A stretch of 24,000 bases of DNA from Bacillota bacterium. Its GTDB lineage: Bacteria; Bacillota; Clostridia; Oscillospirales; Ruminococcaceae. The DNA lies in the NCBI GenBank assembly GCA_023396225.1, contig JAEWWT010000027.1:156202-180201 (forward strand), given 5' to 3'. The position numbers and the translations under genes were made by a program. The notes below the pieces were generated by a model that made no database searches, was not told where the DNA came from, and worked only from the letters and a program-made list of their open reading frames with translations. Positions 2,189 through 15,525 of the stretch are shown here, in pieces (position 1 is the first letter of the stretch; every line of letters begins with the position of its first letter).

Positions 2189-2671
2189 ATGTATTCGGAG
2201 GGATGCATAGTGAATATAGTTGCCGTAATATTGATATTAGTAAGTAGTCTAGTTATACTTTCGTCCATCGTAAATATATTGACAAAGCTAGATAAATATA
2301 GTAAGGTAAGACAGATACTTAAGCACTCTGAAAATGTATTCGGAGAAGTAATGTGTATAACTGAACATAATGAAAAGCTTGGCGGAGCTGAGTGGAAAAC
2401 TCTTAGAATGAATGTGAAATATACTGTCGATAAAAAACAATATGTAATTGACAACATCAAAATAAATAAATCAGACAAAATATTCAAGGGGCAAAATGTT
2501 GTTGTTACATATGATATTAAAAGTCCTGCAAATGCTCTGGTAAAATTGGATATAAACAAAAGAACTTATTTTAATAACGGTAATTTTATTTCATGGCAAT
2601 GGGCAGTTAAAATTTCAGTTGTATTCCTGATTGGAATGGTTGGTCTGCTGTACGCAGTAAGCATACTATAA
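2189..2671 (+). CDS. Small membrane protein, DUF3592-like
   Basis: There is an N-terminal and a C-terminal TM segment. The central beta-like region ends in 'GQNVVVTYDIKSPANALV', which resembles the DUF3592 'V.V.YdP.nP..a' pattern (recalled from memory). GGAGGG at 2197-2202 favours an alternative GTG start at 2210. Confidence 0.6.
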   Translation: MYSEGCIVNIVAVILILVSSLVILSSIVNILTKLDKYSKVRQILKHSENVFGEVMCITEHNEKLGGAEWKTLRMNVKYTVDKKQYVIDNIKINKSDKIFKGQNVVVTYDIKSPANALVKLDINKRTYFNNGNFISWQWAVKISVVFLIGMVGLLYAVSIL

Positions 2672-2675
2672 TAAA

Positions 2676-2712
2676 ACGCATACTTAATGGAAATCCATAA
2701 AGTATGCGTATT
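2676..2712. terminator. Bidirectional terminator hairpin between convergent genes
   Basis: ACGCATACTT...AAGTATGCGT form an inverted repeat between the stops at 2671 (+) and 2714 (-). Confidence 0.55.
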
Positions 2713-2713
2713 A

Positions 2714-3196
2714 TTATTTTTCTATTAAAAGAACGGGATAACCTCGTTCATACTCCTTTACTATGTCAGGATTTTTATCAGCTTCTGCAAAAATTTTGTC
2801 AGCAAGTCCAGTTTCGTTAAGTTCGTTTATAAGTTGACTTAACGGTTTGCTGTACATTGGCGGACATATTGATGCAATCGTGATTACACGCTTTCCCCCC
2901 ATATTCATGATTCTGTAAGGCCAGATTTTACAGTCAAACGGTTTATCGTCTTTAAGTGTGCAGCCTGTATTCATATCAAGCATCGGGCAAAAATATAGCT
3001 CGTTATCATTTTTACGTTCCATACGGAACAGCCAGCTGCTACCTTTGCGTATAAATTTCTGCTCAGGATGATTTGCTAAAATATGATTTTTCAGGTCATC
3101 TGAAACAATTGGTGTCTCCCATAGCTCATAGCTTTCAAATCCGCAGCATATTCTGCAATTTTTGCACTCATCAGGACTAAGAATATTTTTAAGCAA
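2714..3196 (-). CDS. YkgJ-like cysteine-cluster (CxxCxxCC) protein
   Basis: The 160-aa ORF has an N-terminal 'CKNCRICC' matching the CxxCxxCC zinc/iron-chelating motif, plus further conserved Cys residues (FCPM, GCTL, DCKIWP). Confidence 0.7.
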   Translation of the reverse strand: MLKNILSPDECKNCRICCGFESYELWETPIVSDDLKNHILANHPEQKFIRKGSSWLFRMERKNDNELYFCPMLDMNTGCTLKDDKPFDCKIWPYRIMNMGGKRVITIASICPPMYSKPLSQLINELNETGLADKIFAEADKNPDIVKEYERGYPVLLIEK

Positions 3197-5366: not shown

Positions 5367-5393
5367 TTATACATAACGTTGAAAAGAGGTATG

Positions 5394-5512
5394 AAGTTTG
5401 AAAGATAAATCTTTCAAACTATGAGTTTTGTGCTTTTCGAACTGCCGTTCGAAATTTTTCTTAGCAAAAACCACACAAAACATCAAAGAGGGGAAGTATG
5501 GTGATAAATATG
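5394..5512 (+). repeat. Leader-module copy A (26-bp palindrome, second hairpin, SD, ATGGTGATAAATATG)
   Basis: The palindrome AGTTTGAAAGATAAATCTTTCAAACT lies at 5395-5420. The outer stem is GTTTTGTG (5425-5432) with CACAAAAC (5474-5481). The inner stem is TTTCGAAC with GTTCGAAA. Related copies lie at 12407-12532 (-) and 15418-15525 (+). Confidence 0.85.
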
Positions 5513-5946: not shown

Positions 5947-6073
5947 AATTAACTCAACGAGGCTATAAGCATTACATATATAATTGAGAAAAAATAATAT
6001 TTGATTGCTTATATTATGGCCTGACTATCCATGTAAAGAAAAAAATTTGAAACAAAACAAGGAGGATTTTTTC

Positions 6074-7783
6074 ATGAACATGAAAAAAACACTTGCTGCT
6101 CTTTCAGCAGCAGCAGTAGCAGTATCTGCAATGGCTACAACAGTATCCGCTGAAACTGGATCATTTACATATGATCTTGTTAGAGAAACAAAAACTATTG
6201 AAGACGGTACAGCAACAATAACAACAGTAGCTTCAGGTCTTAACCTCACAGGTGCAACAAGTCTTAATGTTACAATGAACAATTCAGATGTTAACAAGTT
6301 TAAGGCTGGTGAAACAGTTTACACAATTACTGTTACACAGAATGGTACAAGCCAGGTTTGGACAAAGGAAATCAGCAGCAAGAGCGATGCAGCTAACTAC
6401 TCAACATGGATTTCAGTAACAGGCGACACAGCTGTAGTTACAATCCCATGTGCAGCTGGCGCTACAACAGGCGGTATCGATACAGCAGTATTTGATACAA
6501 ATGTAAGAGTTCAGATCGTTGCTGCTACTAAGCACGATGTTAAGGATGATTCACAGAAGAAATTTAACGCTGCTATCACTGCTGGCACAATCAGCACACA
6601 GTTCGAAGCTGTTTCAGCTGCTAACACTGCTGAACTTGCTTTGATTGATGCTGACATTGCTACAGTAAATGCAATGGTACTTGGCGCAGATGTAACTGGT
6701 ACAACACTTACAGCTACTGGTGCTCCTTCAACAGCTGGTATGACAGCTCTTACAGCTGATCAGAAGGCTTCATTAACTGCAGCTCTTACAGTTCTTAAGA
6801 ATGCAATCCAGGTTAATGTTGCTCCACAGATTGCTTCAACAAACGCTGGCGAAAAGGTACACCTCTTCCCAATGATGACAACTGTTAACGGTATTGCTAG
6901 ACCAGTTGTTTCAACAGGCCTCGTTTCAAACAATGCTGATGGAAAGAATGTTGCTAATGATTCATATGATCTCATTTCAAGCACATCTTCAACATCTACA
7001 CAGTTTGATCTTATTGATTACCTCGAGCTCAACAATGGCGATCTTAACGACAAGATTGGCAAGGTTGGATATAAGAATGTTCTTCCAGTTCTTAACGATG
7101 TTATTGCTAACTACGAAGATGTTACATTCACATTCACAACATCTGCTCTCTATGTAAACGTAGATTCAAGAGATAACAATACTGTTTCATACCTCAAGAA
7201 GGATGATGACAAGGCATTCGGTGAAGGCTTCTCAGAGAAGAAGGATGATTACTGGTACAACCCATCATTCGGTCAGCACCTCTATGGTAAGGACTACTAT
7301 GATGCTGAAGGCACAAACTATGTTGGAACAAACAACAATTGGGCATTCAACCTCTTCACAGGCGGTCTCACAATCAATAACAAGTACACAATGTCACTCA
7401 ACGATACTCAGGTATTTGATTGGGGCGAAAATACACTTTCATTTGATTGGGAATCAGTAACAGACGGTAAGGTAACTAATGCTACACAGCTTCTTGAATA
7501 CATGAACCTCTACACATCAACACCTTGGTTCTGGGATACAATGACTGTAGCTTTCAACGATGCTAATGCTGAAGATGCTGAATCAGGCGAAGGCGTAGAA
7601 GGCGAAGAAGAAGTTGTTGAAGAAGAAACAACAGCTGAAGAAGAAGTTCCAGCTGAAGAAGAAGCTCCAGTTGTTGACGATGCTACAGCTGAAAACCCAG
7701 CAACAGGAAACGCTTCAGTAGCACTCGCAGTTATCCCTGTAGCTCTCGCAGCAGCAGCAATCGTTGCTAAGAAGAGAGGCTAA
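6074..7783 (+). CDS. Secreted cell-surface protein, paralogue B (569 aa), with a putative sortase-type NPATG C-terminal anchor
   Basis: AAGGAGG at 6059-6065 precedes ATGAACATGAAAAA, as in paralogue A. The ORF-track TTG at 6005 is an upstream extension. The protein is roughly four-fifths identical to paralogue A by eye. The C-terminus has an acidic stalk, NPATGN, a hydrophobic helix and KKRG. Confidence 0.9.
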   Translation: MNMKKTLAALSAAAVAVSAMATTVSAETGSFTYDLVRETKTIEDGTATITTVASGLNLTGATSLNVTMNNSDVNKFKAGETVYTITVTQNGTSQVWTKEISSKSDAANYSTWISVTGDTAVVTIPCAAGATTGGIDTAVFDTNVRVQIVAATKHDVKDDSQKKFNAAITAGTISTQFEAVSAANTAELALIDADIATVNAMVLGADVTGTTLTATGAPSTAGMTALTADQKASLTAALTVLKNAIQVNVAPQIASTNAGEKVHLFPMMTTVNGIARPVVSTGLVSNNADGKNVANDSYDLISSTSSTSTQFDLIDYLELNNGDLNDKIGKVGYKNVLPVLNDVIANYEDVTFTFTTSALYVNVDSRDNNTVSYLKKDDDKAFGEGFSEKKDDYWYNPSFGQHLYGKDYYDAEGTNYVGTNNNWAFNLFTGGLTINNKYTMSLNDTQVFDWGENTLSFDWESVTDGKVTNATQLLEYMNLYTSTPWFWDTMTVAFNDANAEDAESGEGVEGEEEVVEEETTAEEEVPAEEEAPVVDDATAENPATGNASVALAVIPVALAAAAIVAKKRG

Positions 7784-8117: not shown

Positions 8118-8166
8118 AATCGCATAGTAAAAAACTATAATATCATGTTTAATGGAGGAATTTATT

Positions 8167-8442
8167 ATGAAACTTAAGAAAATTCTTGCTGCTCTTGCAG
8201 CTTCTGCAATGGCTCTCACAATGTTTGGTATGATGGCATCTGCTGAAGGTGTTGAAGGCGAAGAAGAAATCGTTGATGAAACAACTGCTGAAGACGAAAC
8301 TCCTGCTGAAGATGAGGCAGAAGTAGCTCCTGCTGAAGATGAAGCTGCTGCAAACCCATCAACAGGTAATGCTTCAGTTGCACTTGCTGTTATCCCTGTA
8401 GCTCTTGCTGCAGCAGCAATCGTTGCTAAGAAGGCTAAGTAA
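8167..8442 (+). CDS. Stalk-only secreted acidic protein (91 aa): signal peptide, polyacidic linker, NPSTG sorting cassette
   Basis: GGAGG at 8154-8158 precedes the ATG at 8167. The signal peptide is MKLKKILAALAASAMALTMFGMMASA|EG. About 40 residues follow, of which 17 are D/E and none are basic. The C-terminus is NPSTGNASVALAVIPVALAAAAIVAKKAK. The tail nucleotides are almost identical to those of paralogue A. Confidence 0.8.
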   Translation: MKLKKILAALAASAMALTMFGMMASAEGVEGEEEIVDETTAEDETPAEDEAEVAPAEDEAAANPSTGNASVALAVIPVALAAAAIVAKKAK

Positions 8443-8788: not shown

Positions 8789-8925
8789 GATTGAAGATTG
8801 GTGAGAGGTAGATAAAATCAATGCGCCTTCTTATCAACTTAAAATAAGATGATAATGGTTTGCGAATAGCTGACTATTACATAAATAGAGATATTAATTT
8901 TAAATTAAAACGGAGGACAATTACT

Positions 8926-9216
8926 ATGAAACTCAAGAAGATTATCGCAGCAGTTGCTGCACTCACTATGGCTGTATCAATGATGGCTGTATCTGCATCT
9001 GCAGATGACACAACAACAGCTGCTGCTGAAGAAACAACAGTTGCTGAAGAAGCTGCTGAAGAAGAAGTTGCTGCTGATGAAGAAGCTGCTCCTGCTGAAG
9101 AAGCTACAGATGCTGCTACAACAGAAGCTCCTGCTACAGGCAACACAGTTGCAGTAGTAGTTGCTGCTATGGCTGTTGCTGGTGCTGCAGTTGTTGCAAC
9201 AAGAAAGAGAAAGTAA
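8926..9216 (+). CDS. Stalk-only secreted acidic protein (96 aa): signal peptide, Ala/Glu/Thr-rich acidic linker, APATG sorting cassette
   Basis: GGAGG at 8912-8916 precedes the ATG at 8926. The signal peptide is MKLKKIIAAVAALTMAVSMMAVSASA|DD. About 45 residues follow, of which 16 are D/E and none are basic. The C-terminus is APATGNTVAVVVAAMAVAGAAVVATRKRK. Confidence 0.8.
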   Translation: MKLKKIIAAVAALTMAVSMMAVSASADDTTTAAAEETTVAEEAAEEEVAADEEAAPAEEATDAATTEAPATGNTVAVVVAAMAVAGAAVVATRKRK

Positions 9217-11093: not shown

Positions 11094-11115
11094 GGTATAT
11101 TTTCATACATTTTGG

Positions 11116-11144
11116 TTGACAATAAAAATAATGTGTATTATAAT
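11116..11144 (+). promoter_or_regulatory. Consensus sigma-70 promoter of the NTase/HEPN pair
   Basis: TTGACA (11116-11121), exactly 17 nt, then TATAAT (11139-11144). This places the ORF-track TTG start at 11112 inside the promoter. Confidence 0.7.
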
Positions 11145-11213
11145 ATAAAAAAACAAATGTGTTTTAATGCGTCGGAAAGGGGACATGCTTCTAAAAGAGG
11201 CATAAATACTGCT

Positions 11214-11525
11214 ATGGAAAATAATCCTATAATCAGACAAATGGCAGATGATATTATTAAAATCTGCTCACCGTTTCAAATTTTTCTTGTTTCTAGCAAA
11301 ACAGATAAAAAGGGTGAACTTACATCTTTCAAGCTGTGTATTATCGTTGCAGACAGTTATACACCTTCTGTTCTTGAAACGGACATTCTTGTAAATACTG
11401 ATTGTCCTGTTCCTTGTGATATTCTGGTATACAATGTCACTGAATGGAATGATATTGTTCAGGATGACTGCTCCTTTGCATATAAGGTAGATAATGCGGG
11501 GGTACTTATTTATGAGCAGAGCTAA
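11214..11525 (+). CDS. Minimal nucleotidyltransferase (MNT)-like protein with degenerate catalytic motifs
   Basis: The C-terminal 'DILVYNVTEWNDIVQDDCSFAYKVDNAGVLIYE' is typical of MNT partners of HEPN proteins. Where GS...DxD is expected it reads 'LVSSKTDKKGELTSFKLCIIV'. The gene overlaps the next gene. Confidence 0.55.
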   Translation: MENNPIIRQMADDIIKICSPFQIFLVSSKTDKKGELTSFKLCIIVADSYTPSVLETDILVNTDCPVPCDILVYNVTEWNDIVQDDCSFAYKVDNAGVLIYEQS

Positions 11526-11949
11526 TCATAACACCGACAGTAAAAGATATTATGACTGGATATTCCATGCGTATCAAGACAGGCTTGCTGCGCAGGTACT
11601 TATGGACGATGAAAGGTTGTACAGCGTTGCAGCTTTCCATTGTCAGCAATGCATAGAAAAAGGTCTGAAGGGCTTTCTGCTGTTTAAGAACAGGAAGCAA
11701 TTCGACGGACATAACCTTACATGGCTTTGCAAACAGGCATCGCTTATGGATCAGAGCTTTACAAAGTGGATTACCAAGAGTGCACTTCTCAACAGGTACT
11801 ACATTGAAACAAGATACCCTGCTGACATCCCGATGGATATTGACAAGGAAACCATTGATGATGTTATGGAAGCCACTACAGAAATGCTTGACTTTATCTG
11901 TGAGCTTATAAAGTTTGATATTAATAGTTATCATAAGAAAAAGAGATAA
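11512..11949 (+). CDS. HEPN domain protein
   Basis: 'AAFHCQQCIEKGLKGFL', 'NRKQFDGHNLTWL' (Rx5H) and 'IETRYPAD' fit the HEPN pattern. The start overlaps the stop of the NTase-like gene (alternative ATG at 11494). Confidence 0.65.
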   Translation: MSRANHNTDSKRYYDWIFHAYQDRLAAQVLMDDERLYSVAAFHCQQCIEKGLKGFLLFKNRKQFDGHNLTWLCKQASLMDQSFTKWITKSALLNRYYIETRYPADIPMDIDKETIDDVMEATTEMLDFICELIKFDINSYHKKKR

Positions 11950-12007: not shown

Positions 12008-12421
12008 TTAAGCATGTACTGTTCTGGGTCTGAACAATTTGCCGAGAAATCTGCATAGAAACACAGCTGGTATTGTAATGAAGTACCATGCCATAGAAAA
12101 CATAAGACATACCTGCCCAAATAGATTCATATATAAGTCTGAATAGTCCCATACGTTCCAGCCAAGCCATAGGTTTACTATACAGCCTGTGACAAATTCA
12201 AGAGCTGTTATTGTAAATGCACCGAAAAGGCACTTGCGGAAAATAGATGTGTCCGGATGGGTTGTGAAATGTCTGTACATTATTAAGAGGCACAAACCGC
12301 CGAGTATTGCCATTGACCAGTGGGTATATCCTCTGTAAATTATCTCTATAATAGAATAGAGAAATGCTCCAATTAAAAAAACTAAAGAGTGTTCTTTGAA
12401 CTTTATCATATTTATGATCAT
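12008..12421 (-). CDS. Polytopic membrane protein, CmpB/DUF1113-like ('putative ABC-transporter type IV')
   Basis: There are about four TM segments. 'FLYSIIEIIYRG' and 'WNVWDYSDLYMNLFGQVCLMFSMAW' resemble the family's WDYS...N..G.vcl..s..W pattern. The start is ATGATCATAAATATG (alternative second ATG at 12409). Confidence 0.65.
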   Translation of the reverse strand: MIINMIKFKEHSLVFLIGAFLYSIIEIIYRGYTHWSMAILGGLCLLIMYRHFTTHPDTSIFRKCLFGAFTITALEFVTGCIVNLWLGWNVWDYSDLYMNLFGQVCLMFSMAWYFITIPAVFLCRFLGKLFRPRTVHA

Positions 12422-12532
12422 GCTTCCATAGGAAGCATGCCTCCTCTTTTTGATGTTTTGTGTTTTTCAAACTGACGTTTGAAAAACACAAAACTCGTAG
12501 TTTGAAAGATTTATCTTTCAAACTTTTTTCCC
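12407..12532 (-). repeat. Leader-module copy B
   Basis: The palindrome lies at 12499-12524. A perfect 18-bp stem with a 4-nt loop lies at 12455-12494. GAGGAGG follows, then an extra 9-bp hairpin CATGCTTCC-TAT-GGAAGCATG (12419-12439) that contains the annotated ATG, then ATGATCATAAATATG. Confidence 0.85.
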
Positions 12533-12657: not shown

Positions 12658-12686
12658 TTGACAAGGTAACGCAAATGATGTATAAT
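12658..12686 (+). promoter_or_regulatory. Consensus sigma-70 promoter of the ylxM-ffh operon
   Basis: TTGACA (12658-12663), a 17-nt spacer, then TATAAT (12681-12686). Confidence 0.7.
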
Positions 12687-15361: not shown

Positions 15362-15417
15362 TTTTTTAACCCCTTCATCTTATGAGGACACCTTTTATAG
15401 GTGTCCGTATCAGGTGA

Positions 15418-15525
15418 AAAGTTTGAAAGATAAATCTTTCAAACTCTGAGTTTTGTGCTTTTCAAATTTACACAAAACATCGTTTCCGCAAAAGTATGGT
15501 CATAAATATGAAATTAAGTAAATAA
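15418..15525 (+). repeat. Leader-module copy C (shortened) with a 9-codon mini-ORF
   Basis: The palindrome lies at 15420-15445. The stem is GTTTTGTG (15450-15457) with CACAAAAC (15471-15478). Then ATGGTCATAAATATGAAATTAAGTAAATAA (15496-15525) encodes MVINMKLSK*. Confidence 0.8.

Follow-up and report, generated by a model that had tools for sequence, protein, structure and literature searches.

A folded, lineage-restricted repeat at ribosome-binding sites of Clostridia that probably behaves as a non-autonomous mobile element

Three copies of a folded element in the window

The window analysed here is a 24,000-nucleotide stretch of a Ruminococcaceae genome (GenBank assembly GCA_023396225.1, contig JAEWWT010000027.1, positions 156,202 to 180,201 of the forward strand); it is identical to the ENA scaffold L113, and the loci compared with it carry labels of the same type (such as L024 and L061). 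It contains three modules, here called copies A, B and C, of a folded, non-coding element about 90-160 bases long. These are probably copies of a lineage-restricted dispersed repeat which acts like a non-autonomous mobile element and is found next to ribosome-binding sites. Pfam matches around the copies are YjfB_motility, ABC_trans_CmpB, Ribosomal_S16 and KhpA, and a short MCP-signal protein is encoded upstream of copy A. The genes behind the modules had been called unrelated in a preliminary description of this DNA, and the Pfam matches confirm the identities given there. Copy C lies between rpsP and khpA and has no gene directly behind it.

An exact 27-mer, AAGTTTGAAAGATAAATCTTTCAAACT, occurs three times in the window (Table 1), each time oriented like the gene that follows. 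None is expected by chance (100 shuffles), and the three related modules of the preliminary description are thus real. A scan of the window with the covariance model described below, run with filters off, recovers these three copies only. The shared sequence is invariant, as had been claimed, but the centre of its 12+12 palindrome is a non-palindromic AA, and as a hairpin (P1) it has 10-11 base pairs (bp) and a loop of 4-6 nucleotides (nt). An alignment shows the outer stem GAGTTTTGTG...CACAAAACATC conserved in all three copies. Inside it, the arms TTTCGAAC/GTTCGAAA of copy A and TTTCAAAC/GTTTGAAA of copy B differ by a compensatory change of G:C to A:T; copy B has a perfect 18-bp stem, and copy C is without the inner 3' arm. 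In all of these points the earlier account was accurate.

Read along the transcript, the order of parts is a native Shine-Dalgarno sequence (SD), 2-5 nt, P1, a three-way junction of P2, P2a and P2b, an optional P3, the element's own SD, AUGGUCAUAA and the start codon. The native-looking upstream SD is variable (GGAGG, AAGGAG, AGGTGA and the like), and the bases behind it are mostly A-rich. P1 has the form AGUUUGAAAG-N6-CUUUCAAACU, most commonly with the loop AUAAAU, and is followed by 0-3 bases. A typical P2 pairs GGG-UU-UUGUGC with GCACAA-UU-CCC around a 2x2 U.U internal loop; P2a is conserved at its base (CUUUC/GAAA) and varies at its top, and P2b is typically UUUCGGC...GCCGAAA. The element's own SD is conserved as GAAAGGA; between AUGGUCAUAA and the start codon there are 2-4 variable bases. 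A likeness between the arms of the first and second hairpins had been pointed out earlier; GAAAG/CUUUC recurs in P1, where P2a begins to pair, and in the SD.

The hairpins inside P2 number from 0 to 3. Minimal copies (L100, L036, L009) consist of P1 and the SD module only, and at the other extreme L038 and L031 have three or tandemly expanded inner hairpins. The subfamily of the window, shared with the metagenome-assembled genome (MAG) OH_PFB_246 (L035, L083, L103), closes P2 with GAGUUUUGUG/CACAAAACAUC and has no U.U loop. In L031 (about 90-200) the unit CGATTCCGCTNCGCGNAAAAA is tandemly repeated where P2b is expected, and a copy in L015 (about 3000-3150) holds an insert with GATTCCA repeats; since these interiors are expanded, inner modules can evidently amplify or accept insertions.

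All three copies in the window end in the 15-mer ATG-RTS-ATA-AAT-ATG. The preliminary description had read it as a conserved coding start, M-V/I-I-N-M. The motif is indeed in all three, but a conserved coding start is ruled out by variable spacers and occasional GTG starts: in relatives, 0-5 variable bases stand behind the motif, and the start there is at times GTG. The 15-mer forms the 3' end of the repeat and is non-coding. Since starts behind the element are sometimes GTG (L032, L107), the start codon normally belongs to the host gene. From MKVLVINCGSSS (read as AckA) and from the comparison of korA, the true gene start is taken to be the last start codon. Called open reading frames (ORFs), in the window (5498, 12421) and at many other loci, begin at the element's first ATG, four codons early, which gives a spurious MVIxM or MIINM N-terminus; the CmpB-like gene is thus 137 amino acids (aa) long in one annotation and 133 aa in another (L115 and L113).

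Table 1. Features of the three copies and other features of the window.
Feature	Position	Strand	Remarks
Copy A, SD-like AGAGG	5385..5389	+	Native-type SD of downstream gene; 5 nt before P1; target sequence, outside the repeat
Copy A, 27-mer	5394-5420	+	
Copy A, P1 hairpin	5395..5420	+	AGTTTGAAAG-ATAAAT-CTTTCAAACT
Copy A, P2 domain	5423..5484	+	Covariance-model alignment (62.4 bits), fold, hairpin scan
Copy A, P2 outer stem	5423-5432 with 5474-5484	+	GAGTTTTGTG with CACAAAACATC
Copy A, P2a	5435-5454	+	
Copy A, P2b	~5455-5470	+	Degenerate/weak
Copy A, element-borne SD and 3' end	5485..5509	+	SD AAAGAGGGG (5485-5493); 3' end ATGGTGATAAAT
Copy A, 15-mer	5498-5512	+	
Copy A, likely gene start	5510-5512	+	ATG; in the long ORF, residue 11 is the first of the YjfB_motility match
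Copy B, weak SD-like CGGG	12533-12530	-	
Copy B, 27-mer	12525-12499	-	
Copy B, P1 hairpin	12499..12524	-	
Copy B, P2 and P2a merged	12453..12496	-	Perfect 18-bp hairpin GTTTTGTGTTTTTCAAAC-GTCA-GTTTGAAAAACACAAAAC; P2b absent; 57.0 bits
Copy B, element-borne SD, P3 and 3' end	12410..12452	-	SD AAAAAGAGGAGG; P3 hairpin 12439-12419; 3' end ATGATCATAAAT
Copy B, 15-mer	12421-12407	-	
Copy B, likely start of CmpB-like gene	12409-12407	-	ATG; L113 annotates 133 aa from the second ATG
Copy C, SD-like AGGTGA	15412..15417	+	Belongs to target; alignment with L111, L112
Copy C, 27-mer	15419-15445	+	
Copy C, whole	15420..15507	+	Internally deleted; 44.1 bits; P1 15420-15445; 3' end ATGGTCATAAAT
Copy C, P2 stem	15448-15457 with 15471-15481	+	P2a and P2b absent
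Copy C, 15-mer	15496-15510	+	
Four ORFs with similar N-termini	334-2037, 6005-7783, 8152-8442, 8860-9216		Two large paralogues (567 and 592 aa), two smaller
Inverted repeat	2668-2717		24-nt arms, 2-nt gap, 92% complementary; between ORFs 2189-2671 (+) and 2714-3196 (-)
Overlapping gene pair	11112-11949		137-aa ORF (no Pfam match), then 151-aa HEPN-domain protein
Sigma-70 consensus	12658-12686	+	Perfect TTGACA-17-TATAAT
Hairpin behind rpsP	15385-15407		GGACACC-TTTTATA-GGTGTCC

Structure and covariation

Relatives were collected by scanning one genome per species for the exact palindrome AGTTTGAAAG-N6-CTTTCAAACT, which yields at least 110 loci. A covariance model was then built on the majority-vote structure of 20 uniform seed copies. 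Its 102 matches, which come from 92 sources and include some without an exact P1, were realigned to it. MAFFT and RNAalifold on full-length copies gave P1 alone, because the variable hairpins were misaligned.

In the alignment of the 102 matches, standard pairs occupy 93.3% of cells, against 76.0% in shuffles. Changes on both sides are seen at 30 of the 34 pairs; they amount to 552 cells, against 159 in shuffles, and none of 500 shuffles reaches 552. Pairing falls to 31-56% of cells when the partner is slid by 1-3 columns. Stems vary between genomes (CGGGUC/GACCCG, GACUUU/AAAGUC, CUGCA/UGCAG, GCGCC/GGCGC), and compensated differences are also found within one genome, as in CGGGUC/GACCCG and CUGGUC/GACCAG of OW818648. 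P1 seemed invariant because the loci were found through P1: copies found only by the model keep it paired by compensation (GUCUGAAAG/CUUUCAGAC, GCGUGAAAG/CUUUCACGC, AUUUG/CAAAU, GAAAA/UUUUC). An RNA-like fold kept through compensatory changes is strongly supported.

Two other kinds of leader were also considered. An intrinsic terminator is rejected, as P1 is AT-rich and no U-run follows on the sense strand; a simple scan gives P1 no more than a weak flag, and that on the antisense strand of copy B. A well-placed UUG in P1 might open a leader ORF, but its frames are random with respect to the gene (26, 37 and 33 copies) and its stops are scattered. Translational coupling through a leader peptide or upstream ORF, which would need a constant frame running up to or across the gene start, is likewise rejected.

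The family is uncatalogued; it is a dispersed structured repeat of a known kind with an unusual target. Rfam 15 at gathering threshold gave no match in the window, and in 15 typical loci only an unrelated Gut-1 RNA (RF01706; L004, 5655-5738 on the minus strand, 50.8 bits against a gathering score of 50). In E-value mode, copy A and L061 returned sub-threshold noise only. BLAST of copy A gave one 30-nt chance match among plasmids and none among phages. A literature search, which included the exact palindrome string, found no description of the element, an absence that is not proof of novelty. The preliminary description could assign the modules to no known riboswitch class, in keeping with the Rfam result; further copies and covariation were both sought and both found, and with no Rfam match either, none of the outcomes that it had held against itself occurred.

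Distribution, target sites and gain of copies

Hosts among the matches listed are MAGs of Oscillospiraceae, Ruminococcaceae and Acutalibacteraceae, unnamed MAGs of Clostridia and Bacillota, and the isolates Acetanaerobacterium elongatum and Harryflintia acetispora. A handful of the listed matches are unrelated palindromes, from Enterococcus, Cytophagales, Treponema, Carboxylicivirga and one Lachnospiraceae contig. At nearly every locus of these Clostridia the whole module is present, beyond the palindrome. Among the matches listed, the richest genome has at least 12 loci. Besides the copy through which a locus was recruited, there are about 12-15 further copies in about 0.8 Mb, and the window has three in 24 kb.

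The genes behind about 96 oriented copies were named by reading their N-terminal sequences. They are unrelated housekeeping genes and, as read, include ackA, cysS, gatB, cmk, gmk, purM, glpK, spoIIAB, flhB and xseB, as well as genes for formate-THF ligase, PgsA, ABC ATPases, lipoproteins and zinc-ribbon proteins. Among orthologues, those read as fhs, pgsA, khpA and an FAD-protein gene have the element in one genus and are without it in another. In L024 it lies between the TAA of korD (as read) and the ATG of korA; in L061 the same junction is an SD with a 9-nt spacer, and the element is found upstream of korD instead. It often stands directly behind the stop codon of the preceding operon gene. 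A same-strand ORF ends within 40 nt before P1 in 35 of 90 copies, so many copies lie inside operons. An association with related or orthologous genes across species is absent, and the element is not the leader of a small regulon. Of the preliminary suggestion of a cis-regulatory leader for such a regulon, the RNA-like structure is borne out by covariation; the regulon is not, as the genes are unrelated and their orthologues lack the element or have it elsewhere.

The bases in front of P1 resemble an SD. Across 107 copies, positions -8 to -5 have 52-58% G and 0-2% C, and position -1 is A in 78%. An SD-like word occurs in the 16 nt before P1 in 91 of the 107, mostly ending 2-5 nt from P1. Adding the 2-4 variable bases found in front of the start codon to this upstream part would restore a normal spacing between SD and start; the element would thus sit inside the spacer, as the kor comparison supports. 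Both junctions are A-rich (left ATA^A, right CATA^A, where ^ marks the junction), and the left flank words ATA, AAA, GAA and TAA share no fixed sequence. The element's own 3' end (SD, about 8 nt, ATAA) resembles its target, which explains tandem insertions such as the pair in L102, with the junction GGATGGTCATA^AGTTTG (GGTCATA^AGTTTG).

L111 and L112, two Logan contigs which are about 92-97% identical to the window across the aligned flanks, lack copy C, which against them is an insertion of 86 nt. The empty alleles read ...CAGGTGA^(G/A)AATACC^AAATTAAGT and the filled allele ...CAGGTGA^AAAGTTTG...TATGGTCAT^AAATATG^AAATTAAGT. AGGTGA is present in the empty alleles, so the upstream SD is target and not element. 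No gene lies behind this site, so targeting, rather than selection for expression, determined the position. None of 80 metagenomic rpsP loci (419 kb, RpsP identity 76-90%) carries a copy; copy C is therefore derived and the family lineage-restricted. At 15496-15525 of the window, the change of two bases relative to the empty alleles makes an ATG and a 9-codon ORF, and the first base of the heptamer is not the same in the two empty alleles. The hairpin just behind rpsP, directly before the copy C site, is kept in both contigs; it may be a terminator or attenuator in the rpsP-khpA operon. Exact-protein look-ups were less informative: at site A the flanking proteins are not on record, and at site B all relatives carry the copy.

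Copies of the same genome have an identity of 0.70, against 0.60 for copies of different genomes, and 62 of 85 copies have their nearest relative in their own genome. Together with the insertion of copy C, this clustering shows that copies are gained at new sites within lineages. Seven copies are found on five predicted viral (IMG/VR) contigs. L008 has two copies 3.5 kb apart (2464-2580 and 6001-6117), with flanks identical to those in L201, an IMG/VR contig, and the ORF behind the second copy reads as a large serine recombinase. This contig, binned as Desulfobulbaceae, is also predicted to be viral; it is either a mobile island by which the repeat passes between hosts or a binning error.

Other features of the window are listed at the foot of Table 1. 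The two large paralogues have about 75-88% DNA identity over repeat blocks of up to 300 nt and no Pfam match where tested; they and the two smaller ORFs have similar signal-peptide-like N-termini and acidic tails rich in E, A, P and V, with GAAGAAGAAGCTCCAGTTG-type repeats of 18-nt period. The inverted repeat between two ORFs of opposite strand is probably a bidirectional terminator. The overlapping gene pair, which adjoins the CmpB-like gene of copy B, looks like a nucleotidyltransferase/HEPN toxin-antitoxin system. The sigma-70 consensus is upstream of ylxM-ffh, in the divergent region common to copy B.

Interpretation and alternatives

The family consists of many non-coding copies, with presence/absence variation and clustering within genomes, as expected of a dispersed mobile repeat. 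The likeliest reading by a good margin of confidence is that all three modules belong to a lineage-restricted, non-coding dispersed repeat, one that behaves as a non-autonomous mobile element. Among the possibilities first raised, a dispersed repeat that donates a translation-initiation region is the one that has held: at least 100 copies, in dozens of genomes and before unrelated genes, vary in presence, cluster by genome and carry their own SD.

Several points weigh against this reading. A single filled/empty pair was recovered, and its 3' junction is TATG in the filled allele and TACC in both empty ones, so that a clean insertion leaves a two-base change unexplained. On inspection there are no terminal inverted repeats, the P1 palindrome at the 5' end and GAAAGGAATGGTCATAA at the 3' end not being reverse complements, and no consistent target-site duplication at the junctions, where the bases before GTTTG and after CAT do not agree within individual copies; the filled/empty pair permits at most an ambiguous AAA duplication. 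No transposase was seen in any of the loci examined. The number of copies per genome, which the data suggest to be in the tens and perhaps above 100, is an estimate from the loci scanned. The alignment used for covariation was fitted to the model and so favours structure. With two doubtful pairs excluded, G.U pairs (65) do not exceed A.C mismatches (69), so departures from pairing look like neutral decay or a strand-symmetric constraint and not like selection on the RNA strand of each copy. The strict sense orientation beside start codons would fit a regulatory RNA too, and the effect on translation through anti-SD/SD pairing is a predicted one.

A working model can be proposed for the mobile repeat. 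After insertion the native SD would run straight into P1, which begins where the start codon would be; P1 would therefore block use of the native SD, which would be disabled, and initiation would then depend on the element's own SD. In the common subfamily, the 3' strand of P2 (AAUUCC) would have a choice of two partners, namely the 5' strand of P2 and the GGAAU of the element's SD. Fold predictions give two near-isoenergetic minimum-free-energy forms, one with AUUCC in P2 and the SD free, the other with AUUCC paired to GGAAU of the SD. This alternative pairing is a possible on/off toggle of translation initiation, and the recurrence of GAAAG/CUUUC in P1, P2a base and SD would permit further rearrangements. 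The element may recognise A-rich sites close to an SD, and its 3' end would mimic such a site. Asymmetric hairpin ends, lack of target duplication and strand-symmetric pairing recall single-strand (HUH) transposition. A more specific version, which we put forward tentatively as a minority possibility, is a homing repeat that recognises ribosome-binding sites, perhaps by way of the invariant anti-SD-like GCCUUUC or its SD-mimicking 3' end, exchanges the translation-initiation region of the host gene for its own portable folded one, and brings dozens of unrelated genes, housekeeping genes among them, under shared post-transcriptional control by P1 and the three-way junction, a 'mobile regulon'.

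Short non-coding repeats of related habit are known. The BOX repeats of Streptococcus pneumoniae (boxA-boxB(n)-boxC) are short, modular and folded, lie dispersed within transcription units and have no transposase of their own. The present family resembles them in being dispersed, non-coding and strongly folded, in its variable count of internal hairpin modules and in lacking its own transposase. However, BOX is not reported in the spacer between SD and start or with its own SD, it belongs to another host group and there is no sequence similarity. Miniature inverted-repeat transposable elements such as Correia (CREE/NEMIS), RUP and ERIC are also present in many copies, polymorphic between strains as insertions or deletions, and cotranscribed with neighbours whose expression can change; they differ in having terminal inverted repeats and a target duplication (e.g. 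TA), neither of which is seen here, and copies of the present family strictly share the orientation of the downstream gene. Class C group II introns, which home behind terminators, and IS1397/IS110-type elements, which home to REPs, likewise use a recurrent host motif, here the SD region; these are autonomous and their enzymes are known. To our knowledge, targeting of the SD spacer with a replacement SD has not been described. Homing between SD and start, strict sense orientation and the replacement SD set the family apart from BOX, MITEs and the IS200/IS605 and REP repeats.

The strongest competitor, which we nevertheless consider unlikely, is a trans-regulated cis-acting RNA, in which a ligand or protein bound by P1 and the three-way junction turns the SD on or off, so that many genes answer to one global signal and the repeats form a regulon and are not selfish DNA. 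Riboswitches and T-boxes share with the element its place in the 5' leader, a covarying multi-helix junction, a potential anti-SD segment and many copies per genome. The strongly covarying multi-stem fold, the conservation of single-stranded and junction positions, the sense orientation of all copies beside a start codon, the two near-isoenergetic folds with free or paired SD and the much better conservation of P1 than of other stems all suit such an RNA. Yet the genes behind the copies have no shared function, placement is not conserved between genera and occupies non-orthologous sites, and copy C was inserted recently where there is no gene. Similarity of the variable stems is highest among copies of one genome, which is not the pattern of ancient paralogous riboswitches; minimal copies lack the junction and keep only P1 and the SD; G.U is not in excess over A.C; and there is no Rfam family. 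It should be noted that such regulation is compatible with mobility, as a 'mobile regulator', and would not replace it.

Slightly less credible is the proposal that the element is a miniature HUH derivative of IS200/IS605 or REP/RAYT type, mobilised in trans as folded single-stranded DNA, with P1 as recognition hairpin and insertion 3' of a short A-rich target. As in IS200/IS605 PATEs and REP/BIME-RAYT systems, there are hairpin ends, strand-specific insertion and compensated pairing, and neither terminal inverted repeats nor target duplication. The ends are asymmetric, the tandem junction is like a joint of right and left ends, the left flank (ATA^A) and right end (CATA^A) are alike, and Watson-Crick pairing without wobble preference is what DNA hairpins would show. 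But no locus shows a cognate transposase (neither TnpA nor RAYT), there is no GTAG head, and the target is merely A-rich and not a defined tetranucleotide. Cleavage of IS608-type left ends falls about 19 nt away from the hairpin; here P1 abuts the flank. Targeting next to an SD is no known trait of these families, and REPs lie 3' of genes, whereas the present element is at the 5' ribosome-binding site.

The preliminary suggestion of an operator for a dimeric regulator does not survive, and the wider idea that P1 is a double-stranded DNA site of a dimeric protein, either an operator or a recombinase core (11-6-11 or 12-2-12) with the rest incidental, is very improbable. P1 can be taken as a perfect 26-bp palindrome with half-sites invariant in many genera, and its geometry is like that of invertase or Xer-type core sites. 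In these Clostridia, however, P1 never stands alone: the SD module always follows, usually with the P2 domain, as part of a folded module. Many copies are intercistronic, with P1 inside operons right after an SD and not in promoters, and the copies of one genome have differing, internally compensated half-sites. Dozens of recombination sites in both orientations would, moreover, be expected to destabilise a chromosome. That the three copies, which lie within 10 kb, are a local duplication artefact or a chance likeness on this contig is virtually inconceivable and already refuted, as no chance matches are expected and unrelated contigs and genomes have at least 100 copies between them.

If the reading as a mobile repeat is correct, many genes in a major group of gut and anaerobic Clostridia, among them essential genes, have had their ribosome-binding sites rewritten by the element. 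It would then serve as a portable translation-initiation cassette of natural origin and give rise to strain-level differences in expression. It would also be a new case, accessible to mechanistic study, of homing to a target motif without inverted repeats, target duplication or a visible enzyme. Comparative screens could take the element for a riboswitch; the covariance model is a ready marker of it in these lineages.

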